From positions 50,282,001 to 50,346,000 of the forward strand of contig OX597825.1 in the NCBI GenBank assembly GCA_951406725.2: a stretch of DNA of 64,000 nt, in the 5' to 3' direction. This stretch comes from Octopus vulgaris. Taxonomy: Eukaryota. The notes under the pieces are model-generated. The model saw only the letters and a program-made list of their open reading frames with translations, was not told the origin of the DNA and searched no databases. Below are positions 12,045 through 51,502 of the stretch, piece after piece (the first letter of the stretch is position 1; every line of letters starts with the position of its first letter). Both the position numbers and the translations under genes were made by a program.

Positions 12045-12101
12045 CTGTGTTTTCCTTTTGTAAACGTTCCAGTTCAGCAAACTTAGCTTTTTCACTCCAG
12101 T
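12045..12101 (-). CDS. C2-IPT protein, coding exon 6 (D-WSEKAKFAELERLQKENT), start of a coiled coil
   Basis: Acceptor TGTATTTCCAG and donor ACAG|GTAAAC, phase 1-1, heptad-like ELERLQKEN. No further exon identified; the gene probably continues left of position 1. Confidence 0.65.
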
Positions 12102-12179
12102 CTGGAAATACAGTATTCACATATTTTATATATATATCTATATATATATATATATATAAATGAAACACAGCAAGTGAAA

Positions 12180-13620
12180 GACAGAAGATGGAATATACGA
12201 GAATTTATTATTAATCACGACAATTCTTTCGACACATCTAGCATCAATTCCTCTTGGGTGGGACACTCAACAACTGGTTCAGGAGCATCTGGCCGTGCAG
12301 ATGTATCTCGTTGGGTGATAAATAAATATAACTCATAAAAATGACTGTTCCATAACATAACTTTCTGATTTGTAGAGGGAAAAGCTGCCAGATGGAGGAA
12401 ATATCTTCATTTATATAGAAGATCAAAAATGAAATCACAAATGACTAAAAAACAAATGAATACACAATCCAGTGAGAAAAGTATTAAAAATATAGCTGTT
12501 AACAGGTATGGATGTATAAACGCCCTTGGACAAGCTGCATGGCATGAGTACACTCGCTCATGCAAGCATTCGCAACTCATGATCACAAAGCATACACTCA
12601 TGATCACTTTGATGCACTCATCATCACAAAGTGAGTTATTTATCAGCTTGGTGTTTATAAAAATGGGGAGCTTAAAAGTAAACCTAAGTCATCCATACCT
12701 TAAAGTAAATTAAATTAAGTTAACAGTTACTCAAAATTCATTCTCACTGCATTGTGCAAAAGTACATTTATATGCATGAAGGCATCTTGAGAGTCATTAA
12801 GAAATTCTATTAATTATCTTCTTGTTAGTCCACAGAATAGACAGGGATTCCTCGGAGCAGAAATGGCATCTCCTGGAAATTATCTTGCATGATTTCACAT
12901 AATTTACAATGGACCAATTAATGCTGTACTTCGTTTTATCGTCCTTCAGTTGCCATACAAAATCTGCTAAAGATGGTGAATGTCTCTTATTGACTGTCTT
13001 AAAGCCGTCTGCCCAATGTAAACATAGGGCCTGCCCCTTGTGTGCACAGTACATTTATATACAAGATTTGTATTCATACAGAGATTCATTAAAGTACATT
13101 TTGATTTTTCTCTGCATGAGCATTTATTGTATTTATTATTATATAAGTCAGTCCTGACTCCATTAACCAGCGTTGTTACCATGCTAGCTGTATCATAAGT
13201 ATTTCTACTACTACAAATTGGTCGTAGTTGATGTTTATCCTTGTGGTTTATATCTCCTTGGTTGGTATTTAGATGCAAATGTTCACTAGATCCAGTAGGT
13301 GGGTTATTGAACCTTTGCCACATTTTGCTATTGTTCATGTGATGTATAAGCTGCTCTAAATTAGCAGAATTGGCATAGAATACCTTCAGAGTGTGTCAAT
13401 TAAAAATAGCATGATACCGATTAGATTTAGGAAAACACCCGTCCAAAGCAGCAAAATATTTTCCAGCGATCTTGGTTGAAACATGCAAACTGAAAATCAG
13501 GTTGAACCAGAGGACATCCTGATTCCTATATCTGTTGTTAGGCTTATTTGATTGAGCGTGTTGTACAGGATTGCTTGTATGAGCAAGTGTACTCATGCCA
13601 TGCAGCTTGCCCAAGGGTGT
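12180..13620 (-). mobile_element. Penelope-like element relic (GIY-YIG endonuclease and pseudo-LTR)
   Basis: Frameshifted peptides VLWFN...HAIFN, CSCREKSKC...NLVYKCTV...YVYIGQT and FVWQLKD...INWSIV...RCHFCSEE; degraded hammerhead-like motif near 12190-12251. Confidence 0.85.
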
Positions 13621-13730
13621 TTATACATAATCCTCTTGGGATTGATAAAATAAGCACCAGTTGAGGACTGGGGTCAATGTAATTGACTTACCCTCACCCT
13701 TGATCTTGCTGGCCTTGTGCCAAACAAGGA

Positions 13731-13731
13731 T

Positions 13732-13820
<89 letters not shown>

Positions 13821-13836
13821 GAATGGATGGATGGAT
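13731..13836. repeat. (GATA)n/(GACA)n microsatellite
   Basis: Direct inspection. Confidence 0.95.
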
Positions 13837-15786
13837 CGTACATACATGTGTGTGTGTGATTGTGTATGTGTGTGTGCATGTTAATCCTCATTGAGGAGAT
13901 AACAAGGGATCAAGACTTCTGGCTATTTGCTGTGCTTGAGAAGACAAATGAAGTTAAGTAAAATCATAGCCATCCACACATACAAGCATTTCCTTTACAG
14001 TTATGCCTCCCACCCACACATAATTCAGTCAATACTCTTCTACAACCCATCTTTCTTACACACCCACTATCCATGGCCAGCTCTGCTACTCTCCCTCACG
14101 GGCCTATCTGCAGACACTCTTAGCCCTCACATCTACCTTACCTCCCACCCAACCATTCCAATTCTTTTCACCATCATACACTTTTATGGAACATCCCTTC
14201 TATCCCCTGTGTAATACTTATACTCCCTCCGACACTGTTCCATATGTGTAGGCCCTCTCTCTCTCTCTCTTACTTTGACCGACTCTCTCTATCTCTCTCT
14301 CTCTAATACTCTCCCATCTTCCTTTCCTTCCTTGTCCTACTAAGGTAACCAAATAGGAAGGCTATCCTTGCTCCTGTATTATACGTTACTCTCTCGCCTG
14401 ACACACAGCCACTTTCCTTGGTTCCACTCCCTCTCACAGCTGAGAGGTCTTTATCCCATAAGCTACTTGTAGGACAAAAACTGAATGCAAGAGAAATCAG
14501 AGAAGACTGTTGGTACAGCAATATAATGCATAAGGGGGAATGAATGCTGTATAAGGAAGTTCTAAATGTGGAAGAAAGAAAGACCAAGGAAGATATGGAA
14601 CAAACACCAATCTTAAGATGCTGAGCTTCCTGATGGAGATGGTTAGCAATGATTAACTACACACATTTCTCTGTTGGATAGCATTAGCACGAGAACATTA
14701 AAACAAGGCATGAACGCTGAGTGATTTTTATTTACAATTGCATCTTTGTCTGATAACCCTCCATCTTCTTCCCACCTATCTGAAACAGTCACCTCCTACT
14801 CTCAGTCACCTGTCACTCACACTCTGTCTCTACCTACCATTCTTATCACTCATCACTTGCACTGCATGCTCTTCTTTCAGTCACCCAATGTTACTCTATC
14901 ATGGTCACTATACAGTTAGGAATGGAATGACCTTAATTTCTCCAGCTTTTACACTCCACCATTCCATTTAGCCCGTCTTCCACTCAGAACATCATGTTAC
15001 CCATGTTGTGAGGATATTTGTGGACATGAGCATATTCTAAAACCCACATCTACCACTATCCTACCTGTCTCTCCCATCAAGATACCTGTGTATGAGGGAT
15101 ATTACTTGATTTATCCATAACTAACACACCCACTTATCTCACTTTCTATGCTGACAGCCTTCCCAGGCCATCAGTATTGACATTCATAACTCTCTTACAC
15201 TCTTATCCACCTTTATTAACATTCAATCTCTCTCGTACACTGGTAACATGCACAAGCTGCTATTTCAGTCAGTCCTCCGTCACTTCCCCATTACACTCTT
15301 ATCACACTGCTCTCCATGTCATAATACCCCCACATACACACACACACTTTTATAACTCTACCATTCACTCCTCTTTTTCATGCTGTCTTCAATGAACAGA
15401 AACACTTCAGATTTGACAAGATTGTTCTTTACTCTTGCTGAAGACATGACAACTTATCTGGTGAAGCTACTATGATAAAATACACCCAGTACATTCAGTG
15501 AAGTGGTTGATGTTAGGGACAGAATCCAGCCACAGGAGCAAAGTACAGTCCTTGAACATGTCTAGGAGGGTAGTAACTCTAAATTAGTATTCAGAACTGA
15601 GACAACCCATCCAACCCACACCAGCATAGGAAGCAGACACAAAATGATGATGATGATATTGGTGATGATGATAACAATGACAGCAGTGAAGATGATGGTG
15701 ATGTATGTGTGTGTGACCAAATGAACATATATGTATATATATATATATATATAGAGAAATATTAGCTAATAACAAGTTGTTATTTA

Positions 15787-16007
15787 TAAGGTGGCAGGTT
15801 AGCAGAATCGTTATCACACTGGGCAAAATGCTTAGTGGTATTTCATCTGTCTTTATGTTCTGAGTTCAAATGCTACTGGGGTCAACTTAGCCTTTCATCC
15901 TCTTGGGGTTGATAAAATAAGCACCAGTTGAGGACTGGGGTCAATGTAATCAACTTACCCTCACCCTTGATCTTGCTGGCCTTGTGCCAAACACTTTGAA
16001 ACCAATA
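15787..16007 (+). mobile_element. tRNA-derived SINE, family B
   Basis: Same head and core as 15-222. Confidence 0.8.
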
Positions 16008-16936
16008 TGAAGTGGCTATTTAACCCCATGTTAACTGTGATAAAGAATTCAATGGTCAACTGGTATTCCAGCCATGACCAGCTCAACTTTTATTCAAGTA
16101 GCATCTTTAAATCTCCATTATCTCATGTAGTGTGTGATCTGAAGGTTATTTCATTACACTAAAACACAGAGAGTCGGCTTAAAGGCTCATGGCACATATT
16201 GTGTTGTAGAGAATCAGAAACTTACTTTTAATTATGGCACAGAATCTCACAGCCCTTCCCTCTACCAAACCACCCAAGCATCATATTTAAATCTAAGGAA
16301 TCATGACGGTATAAGAAATCATTATGGTAAAAGCAAAAATTGGAACTTTATTACTTAAGATCAACGATATCAGAGTAAAGAGCTTTTAATTTCAATAAGA
16401 TAATAGCTACTGCTACAACCACCCCATTATTACTACTACTGCCACCATCAACACCACCAAACCACCACCACTATAACTGTGAATATATTTGCTGTTTCAT
16501 TGACTACATTAATGTGAAACAAAGACAGATTCTGCGTGGTGAGGCTAGATAGCTCTTCTCTCTTGCAATAACTTCCTCCGATTAACTAATATCTCTGACC
16601 CAATCAGATTTTATTGATATTAAAAGAAAAAGACTGGAAGACATTGCTGCATCTTAAAGTTAGGTGATAGAATTAGCTGAGAAGATGGTTAACTAGTAAT
16701 GGTACTGTGCTACACTTCTGATTCAGCTTTGAGTGTTCTGTTCTAGCTGCAAGCACCATTCTGTTGAATCTCTGAGTAAAATACTTTTCATTGAACATCA
16801 GTATTCACAGTTATCTGGGATGGAACTAAAATGCACAAGCTTTAAAGAATACATCTTCCCCAATATATTACCTTCCAATACTTATCTCAACAAGAAACAA
16901 ACTTACGTAATAGGGTAAGATGTGAAATCCAAGGAA

Positions 16937-16994
<58 letters not shown>

Positions 16995-17266
16995 CATACA
17001 TGTATGTACATATATCTATAGTTGGAATTTACAAAAGAAACAAACAAAACAAAAGATGAAGATGGGTATTAGTTTAACGCTCGGAAGAAAGTCTTTTACG
17101 TTTCGAGCCTATGCTCTTCAAGAGAAAGGAACACAGAAATAAACAGAGAGAAAAAGTAAAAAAAGTTTTAGTGACTAGTTATATACATATATACCTGTAT
17201 GTAAGTGATTATATGTATATATATATATTTATACATGTATGTAAGTACATATATATTGAATGTGTA

Positions 17267-18066
17267 ACGTCAGTGTGTACACACAACAGAGTGTAAGCGC
17301 CCTGAGAGAAATGTTGGACATAAGAAGCATCAGATGTGGTGTGCAAGAGAGACAACTGCGCTTGTATGGTCATGTGCTACGTATCGATGAGGAGAGCTGT
17401 GTGAAGAAGTGACAATCCCTATCAGTGGTAGGAAATTGTGGAAGAGGGAGACCCAGGAAGACATTGGATGAGGTGGTGAAGCTTGAACTTTAAACATTGG
17501 GCCTCACAGAAGCAATGACAAAAAACTGAGACCTCTGGAGATATGCTGTGACTGAGAAGACCCTGCAAGAAAAGAGAGATCACAGCCATAGTCTACACCA
17601 GTGTCACATAACCAGCCCATCTAAAAAGTACCTTTGAATCATTGGGTGACATGCCATGCTTGAGGAGACCTATTGAGTTAAGTAAATCAAAATCGGATCA
17701 AATCACAATCAAATGGAAATTGTAGTTGTGGCCAATACCAGTGCCGCCTGCCTGGGTCTCATGCTGACATCACACAATAAACACAATTCATGCGTAGGTT
17801 GCTGCCAGCTTCCCTGCCCCAACTGGCTCCTGTGCCAGTGGCACATAAAAACCACCATCCATACGTGGCCAATGCCAGGAACCCGTGACTGGCTCCCGTG
17901 CCGGTGGCACGTAAAAAGCAGCCACTACACTCTTGGAGTGAAGGGCATACAGCTGTAGAAACATTGCCAGATAAGATTGGAGCCTGGTGCAGCCTCCTAG
18001 CTCACCAATCCCCAGTCAAACCCTCCAACCCATGCCAGCATGGAAAACAGACATGATGATGATGAT
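17267..18066 (+). mobile_element. RTE LINE 3' fragment
   Basis: Colinear with about 10877-11637 and ends in (GAT)n. Confidence 0.9.
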
Positions 18067-18145
18067 GTACATATGCATATATACATACACATGTGTGTGT
18101 GTATATATATATATATATATACATACTCATGTAAGTATGTATATA

Positions 18146-18192
<47 letters not shown>

Positions 18193-18299
18193 GTAAGTAT
18201 ATATACCATAAAAACCCATGTAATTTGCACACTTGGTAATTTACGCAGATGATTTTCAGGATAAAAATTGTTAAGAGAAGCTTCAACTCATGTAAAATT

Positions 18300-18905
18300 T
18301 GCACCCGTGCTAGCACCATCCGAGCGTGATCGTTGCCAGAGCAGCTAACTGACTTCTGTGCCAGTGGTACGTAAAAGGCCCCATTTGAGCTCGACCGTTA
18401 CTAGCATCACCTTACTAGCAACTGTGCTGGTGGTACGTGTAAAAAGATTCAAGTGAGGTCATTGCCAGTACTGCCTGACTGGCCCCCATGCCTATTTCTT
18501 TACTACCCACAAGGGGCTAAACACAGAGGGGACAAACAAGGACAGACAAACGGATTAAGTCGATTACATCAACCCCAGTGCGTAACTGGTACTTATTTAA
18601 TTGACCCCGAAAGGATGAAAGGCAGAGTCGACCTCGGCGGAATTTGAACTCAGACGAAATACGGCTACGCATTTTGCCCGGCATGCTAACGTTTCTGCCA
18701 GCCGGCCCCCATGTTGGAGGCATGTAAAAACACCCACTACGCTCTCGGAGTGGTTGGTGTCAGGAAAGGCATCCAGCTGTAGAAACTCTGCCAGATCAAG
18801 TTTGGAGCCTGGTGCAGCCATCTGGTTCGCCAGCCCTCAGTCAAATCGTCCAACCCATGCTAGCATGGAAAGCAGACGTTAAACGATAAACAATGATGAT
18901 GATGA
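18300..18905 (+). mobile_element. RTE 3' UTR fragment interrupted by an antisense family B SINE (about 18493-18707)
   Basis: RTE tail motifs on both sides of a reverse-complement SINE B. Confidence 0.8.
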
Positions 18906-19527
18906 TAAACCCCCAATCCACTATGTAAAGTGGTTGATGTTAGTAAGGGCATCCAACTGTAAAAACCATGCCAAAGCAGATCTTGCTGGTGCCATATAAA
19001 ACCCTCCCAGTCCACTCTGTAAAGTGGTTGGTGCTGTAAAAGCCATGCCAAAACAGACAGTGGAACTAGTTGCAGTCATCTGGCTTGATAACACTTGTCG
19101 AAACATCCAAGCATGGAAAACAGACATTAAATAATAATGATGATGATCACACACACAAACACACACACTTTTCAGAAGGTGATGGTAAAATGTATGGAAA
19201 TAGTACAAGTACCACAGCACATAGGAACCATTTCTGGTGGGGTTCAATGGGAGCTAGACCCGGATCTAATCCAGTTCCTGAAAGATCCAGATATTGCAAG
19301 CACTGGACTTACACAGAGTAACAAAGCATAGTCAGGTTAAGTGGCCGCAAGCTATGAAGAAAGAGGAGTAGTGTCAGTATGATAAGAATGTTGACGATGT
19401 CTTAAAAACAACAACCAAAGGTGATGCTAATCATCACTTCCAAGCAATGATCACCATTATCATGTGAGCAGTTTGAACTGGAAGAGGAGGAAAAAGTGAA
19501 ATTTCCTTTATGTATTAAGTAACAACA

Positions 19528-19860
19528 TCATTTAACGTGTTTTCTGCTGTCATGGGTTGGATGGCTTGACAGGAGCTGGTCAGCTGAAGGACTGTACCAT
19601 GCCCCACTTGTCGGTTTGGCATGGCTTCTATGGTGGAACATTCTTCCAGATACCAACCACTTTAAAGAGTGTACAGGGAGCATTTTACGTAGCACCAGCA
19701 CAAGTGTTATTATGTGGAATTGGCACAGGTGCTTTTTATGTGACACCAACATATGTGCTTTTTACGAAGCACCAGAATGGGTGCTGTTACATGGCACTGG
19801 CATCAGTGCTTCTTATGTGCCACTAGCACAAGTGCCTTTTACATGGCACTGGCATGGGTG
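19528..19860 (-). mobile_element. RTE 3' UTR fragment with expanded ~25-bp internal repeats
   Basis: Repeated GCTTTTTACGTGGCAC-like units, antisense to the RTE 3' UTR. Confidence 0.65.
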
Positions 19861-19975: not shown

Positions 19976-20016
<41 letters not shown>

Positions 20017-24799: not shown

Positions 24800-25927
24800 A
24801 AACAGACAACTGATTGTTCAAAGACAATTTCAAAAGTAACAAGTAGAGAGTTCTTTTGAAAATCAACAAAATTTTGAATCATGCTGTTATTAAGTATGAG
24901 TTGAAAAAGGGATTACCCCCAAGGACATTCATACTAACATGGTTGCTATATTAGGGGATTATGTTCCAGCTTTATCAACAGTGCTGTTGAATTTAGGCAA
25001 GGAAGGGACAGTTTTGAAGATGACACAAGATCTAGACATCCTGCAATTGCCCCCACCAAGGAAAACATTGATTATGTTCACCATATAGTGATGGATGACA
25101 GACAGTTGACTATAAATCAAATAACCAATGCTATTAGCATATCCTGTGAGAGAGTTGAGAATATTCTGCACAATGAACCTGGCATGATGAAGTTTTCTGC
25201 TCAGTGGTTACCATGTCTTCTGACTCCTGTTCAAAAGTGTACCAGGCTGATCCTGGGAAAATCTGTCATTCTTTCAGGCAGATCCAGCTGGTTTCCTTGA
25301 ACGTTTCCTAACCCAGGTTGAGTGTTGGGTTGTATCACTTTGAGCTAGAGAGAAAATCTATGCAGTAAAAACACCCCTCCTCACCTTCTCCAAAGAAGGC
25401 CAATGTCATTTCATCTGCAGAGAGAATGATGTCCACAGTTTTTTGGGATGCAAAAGACATTGTGTATATTGACTATCTTCAAAAGGGCCACAACAATAAT
25501 GGAGAATACTGTGCTAACTTGCTGAGGCAGTTATGAAAAGCTATCAAGACCAAACACCCAGAAAAACTAACAAAAGGGGTCTGGTTTCATGACAATGCTC
25601 CAGCACACATCTCCTTGGTTTCAATAGCTGCTATCCATGACCATGACTTTGAACTGGTTGATCACCTCCCTGTTCCACTAGTTTGGCCTCATCTGACAAT
25701 CATTTATTCCCCAACATGAAAACACTAGGCTGGGAATCAATATTACAGTGATGATGATGTCATATATGCTATTGATGATTTTTTTGACCAACAGGATGAT
25801 ACGAGCACTGCAACACCAATGGAAGAAATGCATGGACTGCAAGGGACTATGTTGAAAAATAAATCTCATTTGGTTACATTTCATGAAGTTATCTTAGTCA
25901 GCCTATGAACTTTACAGTGAACCCTCA
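24800..25927 (+). mobile_element. Decayed mariner transposon
   Basis: Relics of DDRQLT...ISCERVENILH, WLPCLLT (WVPxxL), FHDNAPAH and LASSD..LFPNMK (YSPDLAPxD); right TIR ...ACCCTCA-TA. Confidence 0.85.
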
Positions 25928-26131: not shown

Positions 26132-27095
26132 TCAGGTCATCACATAAGTTCTCTTCAAATTTTGAATAAAGAAAACAAGTGTTATATTTAATTGAAATTT
26201 AATCATCAGTGTACTTTCCCTGATTATCTATGACTTCCTTCCATCTCTTTACAAGTTTTCTAATCCCATCAATGTAAAACTCTTTTGGTGTCAGAGCAAA
26301 GAACTCTGAAATGTCAGTTTTGACCTCCGCCTGGCTTGCGAAAGTTATGCCCCCCCCCCCCAATGATTCTGTAAACTACGAAACAAATGGTAGTCTGAAG
26401 GAGCAAGGTCGGGAGAATAAGGTGGATGAGGAATTTTTTCCCAACCAAGCTCTTTGATCTTCTGTGATGTCATCTTTGCAGTGTGGGGCTGCACATTGTC
26501 CTGATGAAACATCACTCTTTTTCAATTCACTAAAGTGGGTCTTTTTATTTAATTCAGAGCTTGGTTCAAACGCTCTAATTGCTGACAGTAGACTTGAGCA
26601 CTGATTGTTGCATTGGATGGTAACAATTCAAAGAGAATTACTCCTTTGCAATCCCACCAGAAAGAGAGAAGAACCTTTTCCCATAAAGTTCCCTTCTTGG
26701 TTGTGGTTGAGCTTTTTCCCTTTTACCAAGCCACTGTTTATGACGCTTAACATTTCGATAGAAGATCCATTTTTCATCACTAGTCACAAATCTATCCCAA
26801 AAGAGTGAAATGAGTTCGCAAGAATAGAGAAAAGAGCAGATGTGAACTCAGGATTTGCGGTTGCTTCCGGACAATTCATGAGGCACCCATTTTCCAAGTT
26901 TAGGAACCTTTCCAAGTTGTTGAAGATGACGATGAACAGTTGCATGGTTTGAGTTAAGCTTTATTGCCAATTCTTCAATTGATAATGCAGGATTTTCTTC
27001 AAGTAATGCCTCAAGGAGCTTATCATCAAACTCAACTGGATGTCCTATTCGATCTTCATCTTCAAGGCTGAAATCTCCACTTCTGATATCCCAGA
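26132..27095 (-). mobile_element. Decayed mariner transposon, 5'-truncated
   Basis: LEDEDRIGHP...WVPHELS, IVTSDEKW-like motif, FHQDNVQPH and PPYSPDLAPSDYHLFRSLQ on the minus strand. Confidence 0.9.
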
Positions 27096-27120
27096 TTATG
27101 GGATATTCTGTCATCGAAGA

Positions 27121-27174
<54 letters not shown>

Positions 27175-27589
27175 AGTAATTGTTTGAACTAATGGATGGA
27201 TATATGTCAATTAGTGTGTTGAATAAAACACACTCACAGTTTGGGCTACTTGGTGTCAAATATGGTTAGGGTATGTATCCTCTGGATCTACTTCAGGAAT
27301 TCTGCCATGTTAGTTGAGATAATAATGATCGATGAATGAAGTGGAAGATGGATTTGGCATTAGTCTTTATTCAGTACGATGATCATTTCAACCCTTCTGC
27401 TGACTGTCCTTCATGGGTGGGATGTGTATCCAATTGTGTTGTATTGATCAGTGCAGTCTGGATTACATCAGGTACATATATACAATAAAGTGAGCAACTC
27501 ACTCATCATTCTATGTAAAGACTAATGCTAAATCCATCTTCTGTGTCATTCATCAATTATCATTATAAATATATATATATATATATATA

Positions 27590-28691
27590 TTATTATTGTT
27601 ATTTTTATTGTATTTTTGTATTTATATTCTCGTAACATCATCTGTTTTCCCGTCCTTGTTTCCGTAATTATTTGATGCTTTTTTCCAAGGAATCTAATGC
27701 TCTTAGCTTTGTTTTTCCTTGGGGCTGGCCTGATTGGAGCAATCTCAAGATTAATCAGCCAAAATTGCGAGGATGATCCAGTTCTTGACTGAAGATAAAA
27801 GGCTTCGAATGACCCGTCCTTGTTTTTTTTGTATCGTCTATCTGGATGTTTTGTTGTCCCTTTTTGTATCACCTAGTTGTTCGGATGTTTTGTGTTCTTG
27901 TCCCATTTTGTATTTTATTTTATATATATATATATAGTGACGTACATACACTTTGTTCTCTTATATGTAAGTACACATTTCACTAAATTTTGTATGACTT
28001 TTTCAACCTTTTTACTTTTCGTTCTTGCTTTCTCCTCCCTCTCTCTCACATTTCTTTGCCTTTCTTACTCACTTTTCACTTGACTATGTCCCTGTCTCTC
28101 TTTTTTTCTCACCACTCCTTGATTCTTCCACCAATCTACTTCTACACACTCTATCTCGCTCTCTCTCTTCTCCCCCTCCTTAATTCCTTTGTTCCTCTTT
28201 TTCTCCCCCTTCTCTTCTCCCATGACCGATAGGCCGACTGCTAGTCCTTTTGCGTCTGACCATGGTCACTGCCACATCAACAGTCTTCCTTCTGCCGTAA
28301 GGCTTCATTTCCACACATGCCAGCTGAATTTGTCCCCAGTTGAAAGACACCTGTTGTTATGTCCTGTTATAATTATTATTATTGTATTTTGTATTTATAT
28401 TCAAGTAACATCGTCTGTTTTTCCGTCCTTGTTTTCGTATACATTCAATGCTTTTTTCCAAGGAATCTAATACTCTTAGCTTAGTTTTCCCTTGGGGCTG
28501 GCCAGATTGGAGCAATCTCAAGATTAATCAGCTGAAATTGCGAGGATGATTCAGTTCTTGACTGAAGATTAAAGGCTTCGAATGACCTGTCAGTGTCTTT
28601 TGTATCGTCTATCTGGATGTTTTATTGTCCCTTTTTGTATCACCTAGTTGTTCGAATGTTTTGCATTCTTGTCCCATTTTGTATTTTATTT

Positions 28692-28700
<9 letters not shown>
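27590..28700 (+). mobile_element. Non-coding element with ~330-bp direct terminal repeats (pseudo-LTR-like)
   Basis: 27590-27925 and 28367-28700 are diverged direct copies flanking a pyrimidine-rich core, set in TA tracts. A partial inverted copy lies at 4035-4138. Confidence 0.75.
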
Positions 28701-28730
<30 letters not shown>

Positions 28731-28794
28731 AGACAGACAGACAGACAGGCAGACATACAGACAGACAGATAGATAGATATGTGTACACACACAT

Positions 28795-29508
28795 TTCTGC
28801 CATGGACAGGAAGTTGTAACAATGAGCCAATGTGAAATTTTGCAGTAAATTTGGGAAGTCTACTACAGAGGCATTGAGCATGGTTCAGCAAGCTTATGGC
28901 GATGAGGGAATGGGTCGTATGCAATGTTTTGAGTGGCATGGGTGCTTCAGAAGTGGAAGAATGTGCCTGGAAGATAATGAGTGATCTGGAAGGCCTGCCA
29001 TGAGCATCACTTCCGGAAATGTGGAGAAAATTCATCAGCTTGTACATGATAACTGTCAGAGGATAATCAATGGTGTTTTGGAACATTTGAGGGAGGACAT
29101 TCAGTGAAAGTGACTGGATCTGTTGGAGCATGAAGAATTGGATTCTTCACAATGATAATGCACCCTGTCACCTCATTAGTTTCTTACCAGAAACAACATG
29201 GTATCACTTCTGCAACAGTCCTATTCACCAGATTTAGCACCTGTGTACTTCCATCTGTTCTCCAAAATGAAAATCAAACTCAAAGGTCACTGTTTTAACA
29301 CCGTTGTTGAGATCATGAGTGAATTACAGGAGGTCTTTGTCTTATGGAAAAATGACTTCTAAACCAGATTTAAAAAGTGGCAGGAATGCTGGGACCAGTG
29401 CATTGCTGCACAAGGTGGCTATTTCAAAGGGGATGATGCTAAAATTTAGGTAAATAAGTTTTTTTGCATTAAACATAACTAGTCTACAAACTTTTTGATA
29501 CTAGCTCA
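28795..29508 (+). mobile_element. Internally deleted mariner transposon
   Basis: ANVKFCSKFGKSTTEALSMVQQAYGDE, WILHNDNAPCH and SYSPDLAPVYFHLFSKMK; right TIR ending ...GCTCA-TA. Confidence 0.85.
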
Positions 29509-29759: not shown

Positions 29760-29997
29760 CCTCTTTGTTGTTTGTGACCTCTGAAATGCCATTCTGTAGA
29801 GCTGCAGCATCATTACCATTCTGGAGACTGACATCATCATTGCTGTTCTGAAGAGTAATATCATTCACTGCTACACGAGGGACATCACTTGCAGTACGCA
29901 TGTGTTTGAAAAAATTTTTCCTAAAACGTCCTTCAATGTTTTCACCATGCTTTGTTTTGGAATTTTCTTTGATATTCAAAAAAGTGTCTTTTTTCCC
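29760..29997 (-). CDS. C2-IPT protein, coding exon 5 (GKKDTFLNIKENSK...KHMRTASDVP...NNKE)
   Basis: Acceptor TTAATTTTTAG and donor GAGG|GTTTGT, phase 0-1. Open for 238 nt and frame-compatible with both neighbours. Confidence 0.75.
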
Positions 29998-31039: not shown

Positions 31040-31625
31040 CACATCTCTAAGATCTGGGTATTATTGTAAACATTGATCTGTGTTGGATAAACAACATTTC
31101 CAAGATTGCCAAGAAGGCTGAGGGTGTCCCTGCATCACTCAGTAAGATCTTTGTCAGCTGTTCTCCAGCTGTCTATTTAAAACAGTATATGACAATAGTA
31201 CATCCACACTAAGAATTTGTATCACCAGTTTGGAACCCCTATCTTGCTCAGCATATAAATCTCCTGTAAACTCAGAAACTTGCAACAAATTGAATACCCA
31301 CCATCAGGCATCAACCATACTCTGGACATCTTACTTTCCTGGGCATGAAGACATTGAAGCTCAGACGTCTGACAACTGACTTCATAGACACCCATAAGAT
31401 TATTCACCATCTTTCCAACAACAACTTTGGGCACCTTCTTGAATTCCATATGAGAAACACTCATGAACATGCTTACAAAATCAAAAAGCAACACAGTACC
31501 CATGACTTTCAGAAACATATTTGCACACTCAGAATTGTTGAAGCATGGAATAAACTACCAACAGTCATTAGCTGTCGAGACACTACATCCTTCAAAACAT
31601 CCATGCTTCCTGAAATCTACTAACA
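31040..31625 (+). mobile_element. CR1/L2-group LINE 3' relic
   Basis: DLGIIV, KIAKKAEGV, SPVWNPYL, TLKLRRLTTDFIDTHKII and RIVEAWNKLP motifs with frameshifts. Confidence 0.8.
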
Positions 31626-38140: not shown

Positions 38141-38197
<57 letters not shown>

Positions 38198-38249
38198 TAT
38201 ATACATATAAATATATATAACTATATACATATAAATATATATGATGCAA

Positions 38250-38935
38250 CATTCCATGTGCATATTGTCAAGATGGCAACATTGTGCAGGCGAGTGGCTG
38301 GCTGGATTCTGAGGACATTCAGAACCAGGAAAAGGGATGCCCTGCAACCCCTATGGAAGACTTTTGTTCTCAGTCGCCCGGACTACTGCTCCCAACTATG
38401 GTTCCCAGAGAATGTGAAACAAACTGTGGAACTCGAAGCAATCCAGTGCCAATACACAAAGATGATTGACTCCATGCAAAAGATGGTCTACTGGGGGAGG
38501 CTAAAGGAGCTGAGTCTCTATTCCCTGGAGAGAAAACGAGAGAGATATGCAATGATATATATTTGGAAGATCTTGGAGGGTTAGCTCCCAATTATGGAAT
38601 TGACAGCTATACCAATCTTCAAACTCGATGGCACTGCATCATACCAAAGATCTCATCTTACCCATCTAAAATAAGGACACAGTAATGCAATAGTCTTGGT
38701 TACAAAGGCTCGCAATTGTTCAACATCCTTCCAGGCAACCTTAGAGATCTACATGGAGTTGATGTGCAAGTTTCCAAAGAATGTTTGTACAGGTTTCTTT
38801 CTGAGATACCAGATGAATCCACATCGCAGCAGGAGATGCAAAGAAGGAAGAAGGGCAGCTCTGTCCAATTCACTACTTCACCAAAAAGAAAATTGGAAAC
38901 AACAGCAAGTACAGGTGGTGCACCAGCATGACTTC
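38250..38935 (+). mobile_element. CR1-group LINE 3' relic
   Basis: GWILRTFRTR...DYCSQLW...LSLYSLERKRERY..IYIWKILEG, then FNILPGNLRDL. Confidence 0.85.
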
Positions 38936-40477: not shown

Positions 40478-41609
40478 TTTGCCATGATTTTCTCCAAGAT
40501 CTTTGGAATTTTTCCTTGGGTTATTTTGAGCAGGAAACTTTCTCCGATCAAGTGAAGAAAATTTATTAACAGAAGCAGGATCAGGTGGGATTAATTTTTT
40601 ATTAAAGCCTAGAGTTTGCAGTTGAGTATCAGATGATTTGTGAGATTCAATTGATGCTGTGGGGGAATTTGGCATTGATGGGTTTTCAAAAGGGTTAAGA
40701 GAATCATTCTGACCATGTCGTGTTTTAGGAGAATTTGGTGCAGAAATTGTTATTTGAGTTGGTGGTGTGACTAAGGCTAAAGTACTATGAGAGAGAGATT
40801 TGTTTAAATTTGAAGATGGTCTGGATTCTGGAGGTTTCGGTGCAGGATTTTTATTCCGAGCAGCAACTAAAGTGAAGCCTCCAGTCAAAACAGTTTTACC
40901 ACCTAATGAAGTCTCAATGATAACATCACCATGGCCAGTAGGACCTGGCAATGTTTCACAGTATATCTGACCTGAAGATTCATATTCTAATGTAGAAAGA
41001 ACATCAACATCGCAAATACGCAAGGTAACAATATCAGATTTCTTTAAACCAAGGTTTTCACCTACAATAGTAATACGTGTGCCACCAGCAGCTGAACCAG
41101 TATTTGGAGTTATGTAGGATATTTCTGGTTCAACCCCAGCACAACTTAAATTAAAAGTACTTCGAGTTTTTAATTTTGATGGTGCACCCTCTGATTCTTC
41201 ATCATCTGAGATGTCAGTCTTTGATAAACTAAAAATATCATGAAAAGATCGAGAGATTCTTTTATTTAGATTTGAAAGGGGACTAGTTGACTTGTGTTCT
41301 TTCTTAAAGAAATTACCAGAAAAACCAGGTGATCGTTTAAAAGTCAAAAAGGGATTAGTTGTAAGCCAACTATTTCTTCTTGACTTAGATTTATCATCAA
41401 CTTCTCCAGATTCTCGATATTTAGAAACATAACACTGGTATATTAAACTTCCTTTTGGTTTGGAATTCTTCTTGTGAGGCTGCAAGGCTGTACAAATAAC
41501 TCTTCCCTTGGCCCCACGAAGAGAGGCTATAGGAACCAATATTTGACCCAAAATATCATCCTTTTCTGTGACATTGAAGAATAAAGTATCCGAGGAATTA
41601 TTGATGGAA
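40478..41609 (-). CDS. C2-IPT protein, coding exon 4 (rest of C2, Ser/Lys-rich linker, IPT/TIG domain, Pro/Ser-rich region)
   Basis: Lies within ORF 40403..41677. Acceptor TTTCTCTTTCAG at 41610 and donor AAA|GTAAGT at 40477, phase 2-0. IPT signature PEISYITPNTGSAAGGTRITIVGENLG...GDVIIETSLGG. Confidence 0.93.
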
Positions 41610-44048: not shown

Positions 44049-44154
44049 AGAACTGATTCTTCATTCCAAACAGGATTACCCTTAGGATCTTTCACAACTG
44101 ATGTCCGATATTTCTTGTTTCCAAATCCAAATATCACTGAATATTTATGGCGTC
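44049..44154 (-). CDS. C2-IPT protein, coding exon 3 (G-RHKYSVIFGFGNKKYRTSVVKDPKGNPVWNEESV-L)
   Basis: Acceptor TTTTCTTTGAAG and donor CT|GTAAGT, phase 1-2. Contains the C2 motif KYRTSV...NPVWNE. Confidence 0.9.
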
Positions 44155-44999
44155 CTTCAAAGAAAATAATGTTTTTAAAATTATATTTTAGATATTACTT
44201 CATTGAGCAGTTGTAATTTATATATATGTATGTACAGAAGATGATATAAGAATGCTGTGCTGAAGGGGACTTGTCCAACCAATACAAGCATGAAAAGAAG
44301 ACATAAAATTGATGACAACAATGACGATAATGATGATAGCTGTACAAATAAAGGGAAAAGGGACCCAACACACGTTGTACAGCATCAATAATAAACATTT
44401 TAAGGACATTCATTTGTCCAAGCATAAATTAGCCAAGCAGTTGCAGGGATTTGGGAAACAGTGCCAGTTTTCTTTATTTCACCCATTTCTTTACATCCCC
44501 AGCACACTAACTCCTTGCTCTTATTTCTTCCTAAATCATTTTTAGCCATGTTTGTGAGGAAAATAAAATATTTCTGATAACATCTTTTACCTTTTCCCTT
44601 TTACTTGTTTCAGTCATTAATGATTCAGTTAATAATTTCATCTTACACATGTGACATTCCCTTAGCTTACATAAAAGACATTACCATATCTTACATTTGT
44701 GAATATGTGATATTACTACATTTTACGTGTTATTATCACACTTTATACATGTGACATAATCACATCTTGCATAGTCTCATAAAACTGGATGTTTTGAGAA
44801 ACAAAACTTATTACAATAACAAAATGCTAATATATATTTAACTGGTGTTTCCTAGCCCAACATTTGATTAACAAATGGATCACAGACTGTTCATTTATGA
44901 ATAGAAGCTCCTTTAAGCATTTCACCATTTCTCAATAAATTTTAACAGAAGAAGACAGAACAGAAACATTATAATAAAAGTAGCTTGGATTAATCATAC

Positions 45000-45035
45000 C
45001 TGGTTTCTTTCCTTGTAATCCTTTTGCATTGTGAA
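45000..45035 (-). CDS. C2-IPT protein, coding exon 2 (36 nt, V-HNAKGLQGKKP-G)
   Basis: Acceptor TGTTTTTCCAG and donor CCAG|GTATGA, phase 1-1. Peptide matches the C2 'V..A.GL..K' motif. Confidence 0.85.
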
Positions 45036-45339
45036 CTGGAAAAACAGGTGAAGAACAAATTATGTCATAATATTTGCATTTTACAGACACACATACACAC
45101 GCATCATTTCATTATGTAATACAGGAATATCTTTGTTTTTGGCTTGACATCCATTTATCAATGTCAGCATGGATGAGATGGTTTATTTGTTACAAGTGTA
45201 TTTTACAGTTGGATGTTGTCCCTTCCTAATGTGAACTGTGAACTACTAGTCAACTGTGAAATAGAAGAGAAACCTGATTCTTGCTCATTTACAGAGATAC
45301 CATCAGCAGAATTAAGTGCTTTGTTCAAAGAAACAACTC

Positions 45340-45652
45340 TATAATAGTCACAGTAATCTCTTAACTAATGACTATCATAGCACCACAGTAATCTCTCAAC
45401 TAATGACTGTCATAGCATCATAGCATCTCAAATGATGACTGTAAGAGCATTATAGTAATATCTCAAATTATGGCTGCTATAATATCATAGTAAGATCTCA
45501 AATGATGACTATCAAAATGCTAAAGTAAGGTCTGAAGTAACGACTTTCATTGTCATGTAGTAACAAATGAACTAATGGCTGCTGCTGTAGTAATGCAGAA
45601 AGGACTTAACTAATGGCTATCCAAATGTTACATCAGGGCCTAAAGTAATGAC
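45340..45652. repeat. ~30-bp diverged minisatellite (CATAGTAATCTCTCAACTAATGACTATCATAG-like)
   Basis: Roughly ten units with recurring (A/T)AATGACT/ATGGCT cores. Confidence 0.8.
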
Positions 45653-47534
45653 ACACACAGTTATCATATCTGTTACCATTATTAATTTGTTGGTATCAGA
45701 TAGCATGAAGAGTGGAACTAGGGACTAAGTGCATTGCATCACCAGTTCAAATTCTGACATGGTTCTAAATCATCTAGCATTGATAAGATATATACCAGAT
45801 AAATACTGGGGTTGATTAAATCCAATATACCCTCCCTCAATCTGCATCCTTCCTACCATAGTCCTTCAAGCACCACTGACCCTTGGAATTTTCTGACATT
45901 TCACATTTCATGATCCTTTACATTTCAAGATCCTTCATACTCTATAACCTTTAGCATACCACTGGTCCAAGAAACCTGTCTGGCTCTTTGCATACAATGG
46001 CACTTCAAATAAAACTGTCTTTTGGAAGTCTACAGTCTCTTCAAAAACTATAGCCTTTCAAAAATTATAGCCTACTGATCCTTAAGACCCTCTGGTCCTT
46101 CATACACAGATACTGTGGCCCTTGGAGCTTAATAGGGAAATTTTGACGATTCCATGACATATTACATAGGAATTATGTTTGTATGATGAATAACAACCAT
46201 TTACGTGGGTGTTGTTGTTTAGCCCCAGATCAGTTCTGATCCCACTGACCTGTGATCAAAAACACTCTAACTATCCCAACTCATTTTCTAACAATGTACC
46301 AAGAATTATTTTACCCAATATGTTATTTTCATCTTTAAGATGGCATTGTATGGTTTGAATATAATTTAATAGTTATTTCTAGGTATAAAGAAACCACAAT
46401 GTGGCAGAGTGCTTAATGACTTGTCCCTTTTCTTGATCAAGAGAAGGGAGATCAAGCATTCAGTGTGTATAATTAGTGACCAAATGCCATTGGGATGGTC
46501 ACTGTATTTTAAGAAAGAATTCATGCCAAATCAATGGTTGGTCTATTCCAGGTAACATTTCTTGGTGACCTCTGACCCATTTCTGACCAATGAAATACAA
46601 TGTTCTGCTCAGACAGTGATTTGAGCTCGTGTACTATGACCAAATAATCCATTTCCTTATTCATTAAACAATTGTGACTTTACACTGAAATATTTCACTA
46701 ATTTTAAAATTCACTTGAAATACTTCAGCTTCAAATAAAATTTTATATTTTGAACCAAAAATTTATAATCTTTATTTAATTTCCTCAGAAGTAGGAAAGG
46801 AAAAGGAAGCAACACACAATTTGGAATTGACTTTTCAAGTGAATACCATATGATAAGGAACTCTAGAAAAATGTTGACCTTGAAGCAATGTTGGAATGTA
46901 TTAATTACAAAATTGCAAACCTTTCAGATTATATCAGAGAAACTCAGCTGATAGGAATTAAGTCTAAAGACAAAATGTTCAAAGAATAGTAACGGAATTA
47001 GGCAATATCTTTTCAATATCATCATCTTAAGATTGCTATATTTAAAAACAAAAATTCTGAAATGTTTAATTTGGTAATAGAACAGGGCCTTATTTGAAGC
47101 CTAAAATGCAAAAACAAGAACATAATTAGGAAAAAATGAATATGTAAGTTGGTGAACTTTTTTTTAAATTTTAAAATAAAATCAAAAGCAAGAGAGATTA
47201 CACTAGTGGCATGAAAGATGAAAAGTTTTGTGCAATCAAATCATTATAATTAAGAAAAAAGAAGAGTTAACAGGGATACAGACATTAATGAGAGATTACA
47301 AAATAAACATTTAGTAACATAAAACCAGCTACCAGAGCTGTGCTGTCTCTGACAAAGTTTTTAATAAACCTTTTGCGGCAGATTTAGTTGACCATGAGGG
47401 TTGGGGGGGTGTTGAACTAAAATACACACTAACTGAGAATGGTGGTCATGAAAATGTTCAACAAAAGTTTATAGTTGCTTCAATGCATGTGTGTTTGTTT
47501 GTGTGTCTGTGTGTGCGCGTGTCTATATATATAT

Positions 47535-47780
47535 ATACACACATGCACACGCATACATACATGTACATACATACAATACTCAATATACACACATGCACAC
47601 GCATACATACATGTACATACATACAATACTCAATATACACACTTACACCTATATACACCCACCCACACACATACACATAAATAAATGTATATACATATAT
47701 ATACACGCACATATGAAAAACCTACACATATGCACACACATACATACATGTACATACATACAATACTCAATATATACACC
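47535..47780. repeat. ~50-bp unit, three copies
   Basis: CATACATACATGTACATACATACAATACTCAATATA recurs three times. Confidence 0.9.
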
Positions 47781-48632
47781 ATGTATGCTTGCTATCAAAT
47801 AACAAATCTATCGCTAAGTAGTATCTTACGAATAAACTTAAATTTAATATCTAATAATATAGAAAATTACGATAATTAGATCATTACATAAACAACGATA
47901 TTTACATAAGGAAAATATTATTACTCCAAAGACTTATACAATATTAAAATTTACAATTTGAAGATCTTAAATAAATACATACTTATCTTAGCGAGGTTTA
48001 GCAATGAACTAAAATTTTGAATCGGAAAACGTCTTTACAGCGTTTATAAGAATACTCATGGAATTACGTTATTAGCAAAAAAATAGAATAAATTGTTGAA
48101 GAATTCATTAAGCGTGAGGAACCTACGCTTTATTAATGAGATTGTGAATGGGAAAATTATTGGTTTATCATTGTAAATAGAATGAAGTCACAAATAAAGA
48201 ATAAAATCTCTCTATACTATAATATTTATTAATAAAATAACTATGATAAATGAAACTTAATACAAAATAAATTAAATGATTTAAATGATTAAAAACCACT
48301 AATTATTAAATATATTCTAAAAATCTTATATGATTAATAAATATATAAAAAAAATTATTTATATAGTAACCCCTCAACATACTATAAAGTCTTTCACATG
48401 CCCTTATAATTATAAGCTAAATTTAGTGATCATAACTAAATCTATAAATACTTATCAAAATTTGTAGTATAACTATACATACGTATACATAAATATATAA
48501 AAATATACATACATATACATATATATATTTCAATTAACCTGAAGATTGACTGTAACCATAACTCGAATTATTACGAATTGTAAAGCCATGAAACGATCGT
48601 ATCTTTTATTAAACTTTTAATACTTTTGATAT

Positions 48633-48810
48633 ATCATCATCATCATCATCATCATCATTTAGCGTCCGCTTTCCATGCTAGCATGGGTTGGACGGTTTAA
48701 CTGGGGTCTGTGAAGCCGGAAGGCTTCATCAGGCCCAGTCAGATTTGGCAGTGTTTCTACGGCTGGATGCCCTTCCTAACGCGAGTGTAGTGGGTGTTTT
48801 TTACGTGCCA
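48633..48810 (-). mobile_element. RTE 3' tail fragment
   Basis: (CAT)n followed by CGCTTTCCATGCTAGCATGGGTTGGACGG, antisense to the RTE tail. Confidence 0.85.
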
Positions 48811-49473
48811 CACATGTGTGTACATGTGTGTATATATATATATATTTAAAATAATATAAATTAATTAATTTTATGTATTGGCTTATGTTTTTCATTGTTT
48901 GATTTGCCTAATAGTGGTTTTATCTCTAATTTAATATAATATAATATAATATATTTTACTATAAAATTGGATTTAATCCTAAATCTGATTTTTCCCTGTA
49001 AGTTTGGATTTATTCCCTAATATTTTAATAAAATTAAAATTAATAACTTTAATAATTCTTTAAATGTTAATTATAAATTTAAATCTAATAATAATAATAA
49101 TAATATGATAAAGAAATATAATAATAACAATAATAATGACAGTTTTAATAATAAGAAGAAGGAAAATAAGAATAAAATTTGGTTAATATAATATTTTCAT
49201 TGTTTGATTTGCCTAATAGTGGTTTTATCTCTAATCTAATATATTATATAATATATCACAACAATGGTAAACTTGCAGAAAATTATTGTGGATTCTCAAC
49301 TAAACCATTTTATTTAATTTTTCCACATACTTCTATATTTCTGATACCTCTTTACAGATGATACCAGTGCCTCTAAGATTACAATCAAACATTCAATGCC
49401 ACATACCTATGCATGTATGTACATACATGCAGGAATTGTAAGTGTGTACATATATATGCATATACATAGACAC

Positions 49474-49860
49474 AGAAATGGCTGTGTGGTAAGTAGCTTG
49501 CTTACCAACCATATGGTTCAGGGTTCAGTCTCAATGCATGGCACCTTGGGCAAGTGTCTTCTACTATAGCCTCAGGCCAACCAAAGCCTTGTGAGTTGAT
49601 TCGGTAGATGGAAACTGAAAGAAGCCCGTTGTGTGTATATATATATATGTGTGCATGTATGCATATGTTTGTGTGTCTGTGTTTGTCTCCCCACCAACTG
49701 ATGTTGGTATGTTTACGTCCCTGTAACTTAGTGGTTTAGCATAAGAGACCGAAAGAATAAGTACTAGGCTTACAAAGAACAAGTCCTGGGTTCAATTTGT
49801 TTAACTAAAGGCGGTGCTCCAGCATAGCCGCAGTCAAATGACTGAAACAAATGAAAGAAT
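49474..49860 (+). mobile_element. tRNA-derived SINE, family A
   Basis: Colinear with 6141-6530. Confidence 0.9.
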
Positions 49861-50074
49861 ATATATGTACAAATGTAACTGTGTATGTGTGTACATGTGA
49901 AATATGTAGGAGATATGGTTGTGATGATATAGACATGTTATGTAACAGTATGTGAGAGGTGTAAGGGCATTGTTTTAAGGGTATTGTGAAAGGCCTGGTT
50001 GGAGGCCCAACCTTCCAAGTTCTTTTACAGGATTTAGAAAAACTGAAGAACCACTGCAATAAGTGTGTGGATCT

Positions 50075-50292
50075 AAGGTGGCAAGCTGGCAGAATTGTTA
50101 TCATGCCAGGCAAAATGCTTAGTGGTATTTCTTCTGCCGTTACGTTCTGAGTTCAAATTCTGCCAAGGTCGACATTGGCTTTCATCCTTTCAGGGTCAAT
50201 AAATTAAGTACCAGTTGTGCAATGGTGTTGATCTAACTGACTGGTCCTACTCCCCAAAAGTTTCGGTCCTTGTGGCAAGAGTAGAAAAGAAT
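50075..50292 (+). mobile_element. tRNA-derived SINE, family B, inserted in a mariner-type MITE
   Basis: SINE B sequence interrupts AATAAGTGTGTGGATCT...AATAAGTGTGTGAATCT, an apparent target duplication, within an antisense copy of the 9206/11717 MITE family. Confidence 0.8.
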
Positions 50293-50401
50293 AAGTGTGT
50301 GAATCTGAGAGGGGAATATGTTAAATAAAATCATAATTAACTGATTCTCATGTATTTTCTTTTACCCAAAGCTAAGAACTTTTCAGCATGCTCTTGTAAA
50401 T

Positions 50402-50619
50402 TCTCTTTCTCTTTTATTCTCTTTTACTTGTTTCAGTTATTTGACTGTTGCCATGCTGGAGCACCACCTTTAGTCGAGTAAACTGACCCCAGGACATATT
50501 CTTTGTAAGCCTAGTACTTATTCTACCAGTCTCTTTTGCTGAACTGCTAAGTTAAAGGGACATAAACACACCACCATCAGTTGCCAAGCAATGTTGGGGG
50601 GACAAACACAGACACACAA

Positions 50620-50655
<36 letters not shown>

Positions 50656-50838
50656 ACACACGGGCTACATATATACGACGGGCTTCTTTCAATTTCTGTC
50701 TACCAAATCCACTCACAAGGCTTTGGTTGGCCCGAGGCTATAGGAGAGGACACTTGCCCAAGGTGCCACGCAGTGGGACTGAACCCAGAACTATGCGATT
50801 GGTAAGCAAGCTACTTACCTCACAGCCACTCCTACGCC
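50402..50838 (-). mobile_element. tRNA-derived SINE, family A
   Basis: Reverse complement of 49474-49860. Confidence 0.9.
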
Positions 50839-51453
50839 TATGTGTAAAGTATGTAGAATAAGGAGTTGTGATGATATGGATATGTGGTGTATGCAAGAGA
50901 GCTGTTTAGAATGATATGGCCATGTGATGTATGAATAATAGTAGAGTGCTTGGTGAAAAAGTGATGTAACCCAGAATGGGTAGGTGACCATCATAGAAAA
51001 CTGGGAAATAAATACACAGGGCAAGGCAGGGTGAGTGAGTGGAATTGTCATGTCAGGATGTTGGAGTTACAGATAAGGCAACACAAGATTAATGCATGTG
51101 ATGATTTCATAGAGTGCAGACCTATCCAACCCATACCTAAAGAGAAAATAGGCATTAAAAACTGATATTGTTGATAAAGCAGGAAATATATTTCTTTCTG
51201 CTAAATAAAATTAAAAGATTCATCAACTCTAGAACTTAACCTAGAACTTCTCACCGTCTGAACAAACATTACATACACATGTACATCCATGTATGTGCAC
51301 GCACGCGTATGTGTATGTATGTATGCATGCATATATATGAGTGTGTTTGTGTGTATGTACACACACACAGATAGGCATACCCAAATACAAACCAAATGAT
51401 ATAAATGAGAAACATTAAATATATCAAAGTACAGAAATTTAGTTAATACATAC

Positions 51454-51502
51454 CTATAACAGTCACTTGGTCAGGAATCGACTGCTGCTCACTCTCATCC
51501 AT
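51454..51502 (-). CDS. C2-IPT protein, coding exon 1 (MDESEQQSIPDQVTVI-V); the exon probably extends 5' as UTR to the acceptor at 51668
   Basis: ATG at 51502 is the first in-frame ATG after an upstream in-frame TAG. Donor ATAG|GTATGT is phase 1 and joins exon 2 to give DQVTVIVHNAKGL, the first C2 strand. Acceptor TTTTGTTTCCAG at 51669. Confidence 0.75.

Follow-up and report, generated by a model that had tools for sequence, protein, structure and literature searches.

A 64,000-nucleotide stretch of the Octopus vulgaris genome (assembly GCA_951406725.2, contig OX597825.1, positions 50,282,001 to 50,346,000; hereafter the window) carries on its minus strand six exons of a gene whose protein joins, in this order, a C2 domain, a linker, an IPT domain best matched by the exocyst subunit Sec5 (EXOC2), a disordered region, a predicted coiled coil and a tail resembling the Rab11-binding domain (RBD) of the Rab11-FIPs, with the motif YIE. 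The most likely reading, to which we give a probability of roughly 0.6, is that the protein belongs to an ancient family of dimeric Rab11 effectors acting on recycling vesicles, and that its IPT domain bound Ral-GTP ancestrally, the key arginine having been lost in octopus and other molluscs.

All six exons have GT-AG borders, with cumulative phases 1,1,2,0,1,1, and when spliced they give 539 stop-free codons. The translation equals residues 1-539 of the O. vulgaris protein CAI9731163.1 (P0008, 578 residues) with 0 differences, and departs from the O. sinensis RefSeq protein at 2 positions. The in-frame chain read by the first-pass annotation, a reading of the letters of this stretch, is thus confirmed. 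That annotation had also expected a final exon with a YID-type Rab11-binding motif beyond the left edge; the last 39 residues have no tblastn match within the 64-kb window, which places exon 7 to its left, and the tail of CAI9731163.1 indeed holds Y551-I552-E553. The features are the following:

51454..51502, minus strand: coding exon 1 (51502-51454), beginning with ATG; residues 1-16, first C2 strand
45000..45035, minus strand: coding exon 2, 36 nt; residues 17-28, basic C2 loop 1 including K26/K27
44049..44154, minus strand: coding exon 3; residues 29-63, C2 core
40478..41609, minus strand: coding exon 4, 1132 nt; residues 64-441, second half of the C2, linker, IPT and Pro/Ser-rich disordered region
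41237..41254, minus strand: conserved linker motif, residues 183-188
40865..41128, minus strand: IPT/TIG domain best matched by Sec5, residues 225-312; S228 stands at the position of Sec5 Thr11 and V246 (41065-41063) at that of Sec5 Arg27
29760..29997, minus strand: coding exon 5; residues 442-520, disordered, containing HMRTASD
29904-29884, minus strand: HMRTASD in exon 5, an H-x-R-x-x-S motif found mainly in molluscs
12045..12101, minus strand: coding exon 6; residues 521-539, in which the C-terminal helix begins (524-562 in the model)
1..12044, minus strand: intron 6, leaving through the left edge of the window; exon 7 (residues 540-578, the FIP-RBD-like tail) lies beyond

Against Pfam, the full protein matches C2 with an expect value (E) of 1.7e-9 (38.2 bits), in agreement with the N-terminal C2 annotated earlier, and TIG with E 2.3e-11; RBD-FIP is matched below threshold at residues 536-565. 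The AlphaFold model is confident for the C2 (about residues 9-129), the IPT (about 226-312), a helix at 524-562 and a short helix past Pro564. The remainder, including most of residues 326-519, mostly has a predicted local distance difference test score (pLDDT) below 50.

By sequence and by fold, the closest solved relative of the IPT domain is Sec5. In PDB sequence searches Sec5 comes first with the octopus domain (45.8 bits over 88 residues; best single stretch of plexin, 28.5) and with its counterpart from the annelid Owenia (74.5 vs 45.7 for plexin), and a profile of 21 family members scores 94.8 with Sec5 in one stretch against 83 for plexin summed over three. Modelled alone, the octopus domain reaches a pLDDT of 95. 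Foldseek places this model nearest the Sec5 structure 1uad_C (E 1.3e-7, template-modelling score (TM) 0.82), followed by plexin A1 (E 2.8e-4, TM 0.69) and MET (E 3.7e-4, TM 0.77), and the VIA fold comparison over 48,161 chains again returns 1uad_C first (Z 15.3, root-mean-square deviation (rmsd) 1.9, 92 aligned), before plexin A1 (Z 13.6, rmsd 1.9, 91 aligned) and MET (Z 12.7). The likeness to Sec5 lies in the second half of the domain: a D-x3-L-x-I pattern is present in 107/135 family IPTs and in 8/349 control IPTs, which were taken from matches to the octopus exon, and T-x-x-G-G-x-G-x-S in 36/135 and 4/349, respectively.

Several observations weigh against a Sec5-type assignment. The margin over plexin in the fold comparison is modest (1.7 Z), with a similar rmsd for MET, and the first half of the domain bears a plexin/MET-like two-residue G-G-T insertion that Sec5 does not have. 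A homologue search among proteins of 661-2000 residues returned plexins only (7/7), and the Atlas, searched with the IPT alone, gave generic TIG clusters only, all below 0.9. Neither Sec5 nor a canonical FIP appeared among the 35 matches of the profile search, and the trees hold neither. The Sec5 assignment of the first-pass annotation thus holds as the best match, by a modest margin.

A fragment of a plexin or MET receptor was considered as a separate candidate and rejected, as the protein has no Sema or PSI domain in Pfam and no hydrophobic segment. No membrane-spanning segment was found in the octopus protein (highest 19-residue hydropathy, 1.08).

How widely is this architecture distributed? 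Among 1.84 billion representatives scanned there were 929 matches, of which 150 were listed, and C2, IPT and tail are all present in 76 of the 242 stored proteins, near-duplicates counted. Species names were looked up for 30 proteins and further names came with the records; most matches are unnamed. Members occur in the filasterean Pigoraptor (with two IPTs), the sponges Oscarella and Sycon, the cnidarians Nematostella and Acropora, the hemichordate Ptychodera, the crinoid Anneissia, the annelids Owenia and Paralvinella (three IPTs), the nemertean Tubulanus and 19 mollusc species; a record from the nematode Plectus has IPT and tail and no Pfam match to C2. The survey across invertebrates that the first-pass annotation had proposed therefore yields a family running from a filasterean to molluscs, some members with tandem IPTs. 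No vertebrate or insect member was found among the named proteins, which are the minority of the matches, and we infer that the family was lost in both groups. With partial records and near-duplicates within clusters set aside, 44 full-length rows give a tree whose topology follows animal groups, and a 29-row clade (support 100/99) contains all 15 named molluscs. Read from these sequences, the family is older than animals and is not the oddity of one lineage.

Variants of the architecture were seen within the family. Two or three tandem Sec5-type IPTs occur in P0047, P0053, P0062, P0064, P0071 and P0076, and an acidic insert of 300-400 residues separates C2 and IPT in P0022, P0023, P0073, P0074 and P0082. 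P0073 sits on a long branch inside the bivalve clade, which suggests a second gene copy. An oyster protein (P0089, Magallana gigas) has C2, linker motif and tail and no IPT; oyster P0221 has C2, IPT and tail, and P0089 is possibly a gene-model error or an isoform that skips the IPT. In the Atlas, one cluster of 53 members combines C2 and TIG, and another, IPT-less cluster of 63 members combines C2 and RBD (score 0.77, a lead only); both are commonest in Mollusca. This second cluster suggests that the octopus-type family is probably a paralogue of the ordinary class I FIP, mollusc Rip11, and not that protein itself.

The residues that contact Ral in Sec5 separate the molluscs from the other members. 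In Sec5, Thr11 contacts RalA Tyr36 and the T11A change reduces affinity (PMC12407918). R27E in Sec5 rescues binding to the Sec5-uncoupled RalA E38R (PMC3382198), and this restoration implies an Arg27-Glu38 pair. Aligned to Sec5, the octopus domain has Ser228 at the Thr11 position and Val246 at the Arg27 position. We take the Sec5 Arg27-RalA Glu38 contact to be a salt bridge, on the strength of the charge-swap rescue. The Arg27 position is R or K in 11/15 tree rows outside the mollusc clade and in 0/29 inside, where it is Glu, Asp, Val or Ile, with Glu or Asp in most gastropods and bivalves. Scallops have Leu at the Thr11 position, and the last strand of mollusc IPTs is altered too. Both Pigoraptor IPT copies and all three Paralvinella copies keep R/K. 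The combination of T/S and R/K at the two positions is found in 39/123 matched family IPTs and in 14/178 matched control IPTs.

Part of this pattern counts against an ancestral Ral contact: 4/15 rows outside the mollusc clade are also non-basic at the Arg27 position, and the loss in molluscs is a single event on their stem, not 29. The Thr11 position is Thr in 74/178 control IPTs (T/S in 113/178) and, with Thr so frequent there, only the arginine and the C-terminal half of the domain are diagnostic. From the residues at these positions, we rate it an even chance that members of the ancestral type bind Ral. It is possible that the protein is instead an adaptor of Rab11-FIP type with an IPT that at no time bound Ral; the domain would share ancestry with that of Sec5 but serve, throughout the family, in cargo binding, dimerisation or the recognition of another GTPase. 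IPTs mediate interactions of many kinds (those of EBF, NF-kB, plexin and MET all score Z 10-13.6), the Arg27 position varies freely in molluscs as well as in the four other non-basic rows, and nothing more specific than generic TIG clusters came from the Atlas with the IPT as query; however, R/K has been kept from the filasterean to annelids and hemichordates, whereas Arg stands at this position in just 7/178 matched control IPTs. On balance we consider this explanation doubtful.

Alternatively, the octopus protein may itself be a working Ral effector, provided that Arg27 is dispensable and that backbone pairing between the edge strand and Ral switch I is enough. The Sec5 fold is kept, Ser occupies the Thr11 position, the IPT is well conserved across molluscs and, in C. 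elegans, a Thr11-equivalent change seems to impair rather than abolish the association (PMC12407918). Against this, Val246 replaces Arg27, the Glu or Asp of most gastropods and bivalves is a charge reversal of the kind that suits RalA E38R in Sec5, and scallops have Leu for Thr11. Judged by these residues, binding of Ral by the octopus IPT is unlikely. Octopus residues 221-316 co-folded with a Ral G domain of metagenomic origin, GTP and Mg scored 0.00 in two runs made without alignments or folded controls, which is no evidence either way.

The preferred reading, a Rab11 effector with an IPT of Ral-binding ancestry, depends on the tail for its Rab11 side. Y551-I552-E553, encoded by the seventh exon, keeps the FIP-type spacing. 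A family profile built from 14 tails matches the Rab11-binding domains of FIP3, FIP1 and FIP2 in the PDB with E from 7e-7 to 2e-5, in gap-free alignments that hold Y-I-D and the downstream Pro in register. Among 79 tails, selected with a family profile, all (79/79) have Y, a hydrophobic residue and D, E or N, followed 12 residues later by Pro; 59 of them read YID, as in cuttlefish, and 8 YIE. The RBD-FIP curated cut-off of Pfam is passed by 7/25 relatives scanned. In FIP1C, 2, 3 and 5, changing the motif Ile to Glu abolishes Rab11 binding (PMC9282008), and by alignment octopus Ile552 is the counterpart of this essential Ile. The helix at 524-562 has high pLDDT in the monomer model, and Leu534 and Leu541 are conserved. 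In the octopus tail Leu replaces a conserved Met, and Cys precedes the Pro.

The tail evidence has its contrary side. A designed repeat coil outranks the FIPs for the tail profile, through summed weak stretches, and SCOC, leucine zippers and generic coils follow. The octopus tail scores 12.9 bits on RBD-FIP against a cut-off of 23.3, none of the 10 mollusc-type proteins scanned with Pfam passes it, and a lone cuttlefish tail searched against the PDB returned no FIP at E 10. Could a tail so divergent serve another GTPase (Rab14, Rab25, Rab42-like or Arf), or merely dimerise, with no action on Rab11 endosomes? The low RBD-FIP score, YIE in place of YID and Leu for the conserved Met fit this proposal, as does the report that Rab specificity shifts with small changes in FIP tails (bioRxiv 2021.01.25.428185); but the tail retains the essential Ile at exactly the FIP spacing, most tails read YID and relatives pass the Pfam cut-off, and we regard the proposal as quite improbable. 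From motif and spacing, binding of the octopus tail to the Rab11 family is probable. The first-pass annotation had suggested an adaptor for Ral and possibly Rab11: Rab11 now appears the better founded partner of the two, and Ral binding by the octopus protein has become the weaker part, with Val246 in place of Arg27.

CAI9731163.1 bears the source label ‘exocyst complex component 2’, and so do records from Owenia, Paralvinella, Acropora, Mya and Sycon. That the protein is the exocyst subunit EXOC2/Sec5, as these names state and as the best PDB match to its IPT might encourage, is very improbable and is rejected: none of 10 proteins has a Pfam Sec5 match at E 1, the model contains no helical-bundle body, and the IPT is internal, behind a C2. 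Without an exocyst helical body the label is wrong, and the correction extends to at least six records of invertebrates, the Octopus one and those of the five genera just named.

The exon chain is supported at its junctions indirectly, by homology. Four octopods have annotated proteins, and contigs of 1.6-3.4 kb encode full-length homologues from decapods and bivalves. At the three junctions within the C2, five short-contig homologues align gap-free; the linker around junctions 4 and 5 aligns poorly. The exon-4 stretch is present in 20/24 sequencing-run rows, 0 of them recorded as RNA. The fusion of C2 and IPT is independent of splicing, since a single exon, exon 4, encodes the entire IPT along with the second half of the C2. 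A gene-prediction artefact fusing unrelated exons, which long introns (up to 17.7 kb) and two very small coding exons might suggest, is rejected as scarcely credible given half of the C2 and the IPT in one exon and the same domain order in the 76 stored proteins, including full-length products on 2-3 kb contigs. On this sequence evidence the six-exon gene is real.

Two observations concern related gene models. An O. bimaculoides UniRef model (P0027) ignores the exon-5 donor and continues into a repeat of AAT/GAT units found at window positions 29759-29689, likely a prediction error. Variants of the cuttlefish cluster (P0038 and P0040 vs P0013) have a 16-residue linker insert near the position of the octopus exon 4/5 junction, possibly through alternative splicing.

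The C2 domain would provide the membrane attachment. Its fold is close to that of the Munc13-1 C2B (Z 16.8, rmsd 1.5, 110 aligned), with a loop 3 shorter than that of extended synaptotagmin 1, and it is basic (K+R 19 vs D+E 8). By the canonical spacing, residues 27 and 32 are the loop-1 Asp positions of calcium-binding C2 domains. Octopus has Lys27 and Lys32 at these calcium-ligand positions and falls short of the five acidic ligands that a calcium-binding C2 has in loops 1 and 3; among 21 aligned members, residue 27 is K/R in 20 and residue 32 is Asp in 0. The domain presumably resembles the class I FIP C2 subfamily and may descend from it; Atlas neighbours with C2 and RBD-FIP (score 0.77) are a lead in that direction. 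Class I FIP C2 domains bind anionic lipids independently of calcium (PMC9282008), and by analogy the octopus C2 would do likewise.

Between C2 and IPT, the linker motif (residues 183-188) has Ser at S185 in 20/21 and Asp at D188 in 16/21 aligned members, and S185 is a candidate phosphorylation site by its conservation. This motif and HMRTASD may be comparable to kinase sites of class I FIPs. P0008 has two NPF motifs, at residues 149 and 369 (exon 4), and an NPF follows the IPT in several relatives too; the NPF motifs of FIP2 bind EH domains.

The exons, domains, motifs, residue states and distribution above come directly from sequences and models, and each binding step of the mechanism we propose is inferred from them. 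Through its C-terminal helix the protein would pair into a parallel homodimer, and the Y551-I552-E553 tail, with its FIP motif and spacing, would bind two Rab11-GTP as in Rab11-FIPs. Since Lys stands where loop 1 would otherwise hold calcium ligands, the basic C2 would attach the vesicle to anionic lipids independently of calcium, as class I FIPs suggest. The ancestral form is that of the filasterean, sponge, cnidarian, hemichordate, annelid and nemertean members; there the IPT, which has the contact residues, would bind Ral-GTP like Sec5. The ancestral protein would thus be a Ral/Rab11 coincidence adaptor, multivalent where the IPTs are tandem. On the mollusc stem the Arg27 position changed to Glu, Asp, Val or Ile, together with a change in the last strand. 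These changes would weaken the contact, and in octopus the affinity of the IPT for Ral is probably low, or a different partner has taken its place.

How does the protein compare with known systems? Like the class I Rab11-FIPs (FIP1/RCP, FIP2, FIP5/Rip11 and Drosophila Rip11; class definition in PMC9282008), it has an N-terminal C2, a long disordered middle and a predicted C-terminal coiled coil ending in a YID-type putative Rab11-binding domain, whereas the octopus family adds one to three Sec5-type IPTs past the C2 linker and the octopus tail is divergent and below the cut-off. By its domains it would function like a class I Rab11-FIP, yet the extra IPT (residues 225-312) between C2 and RBD sets it outside strict membership. 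FIP3 of class II (FIP3, FIP4, Nuf) has an RBD that matches the family tail profile as well as that of FIP1; in contrast to this class, the octopus protein has no EF-hand match in Pfam and carries C2 and IPT instead. With the N-terminal Ral-binding IPT of Sec5/EXOC2 (PDB 1UAD, 1HK6), its closest solved relative over the full domain, the octopus IPT shares a cytosolic setting, and the Thr11 and Arg27 positions are kept in most non-mollusc members; unlike Sec5, the family is without the exocyst helical body, its IPT is internal and sometimes tandem, and two residues are inserted after the first strands. The IPT repeats of plexin, MET and RON have the same fold (Z 12-13.6) and the G-G-T motif, but they are extracellular receptor repeats, while the octopus protein has no signal or membrane segment and is similar to them in sequence mainly over the first two-thirds of the IPT.

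Remnants of transposons and repeats surround the exons. Intron 6 holds, at window positions 9257-11296 on the plus strand, a broken non-LTR (long terminal repeat) retrotransposon with a reverse transcriptase (Pfam RVT_1, E 2.1e-22) in three stop-separated frames and a PHD/C1-like cysteine cluster inserted behind it. Of three fragments in intron 5, at 26848-27210 (minus), 24938-25300 (plus) and 28691-29146 (minus), the first alone has weak helix-turn-helix Pfam matches; we take all three to resemble N-termini of mariner-type transposases. Two intron 4 fragments, 31294-31623 and 38195-38584 (both plus), have no Pfam match and presumably resemble decayed C-termini of long interspersed nuclear elements (LINEs). 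An interrupted frame at 56190-56783 (minus), also with no Pfam match, resembles, we assume, the C-terminal endonuclease region of a retrotransposon. Overlapping low-complexity frames at 60365-61945 (405 residues plus, 505 residues minus, and a Thr/Ala/Pro-rich 171 residues plus) have no Pfam match and are probably a degenerate trinucleotide repeat.

Few effectors of Ral are known, and the Sec5-type binding domain is usually treated as belonging to the exocyst only. The architecture was not described in the open-access literature searched (titles and abstract openings), in keeping with the earlier view that it is uncharacterised, and the family is apparently undescribed, its sequences being public and automatically annotated. 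A more tentative proposal, which we hold at somewhat less than even odds, is that the family is a third, pre-metazoan class of Rab11-FIP that doubles as a Ral effector so far unrecognised. Its members would then be alone with Sec5 in having a Sec5-type Ral-binding domain, and would read both Rab11-GTP and, with up to three tandem domains, Ral-GTP on a single chain. The domain may share its origin with the one acquired by animal Sec5, and molluscs would have rewired the interface once, on their stem. Such a class would have been missed because vertebrates and flies seem to be without the family. One account makes the control of the exocyst by Ral an innovation of metazoans (PMC12407918), and another treats the Ral-binding domains as later acquisitions (PMC2635961). 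If our reading is true, a pre-animal family that places a Sec5-type domain on a Rab11-FIP scaffold would connect Ral signalling with Rab11 recycling directly, at the molecular level. It predicts that the Arg-bearing IPTs of sponges, cnidarians and annelids should bind Ral and that those of molluscs should not, and the family would offer a handle on the origin of the Sec5-type Ral-binding domain.

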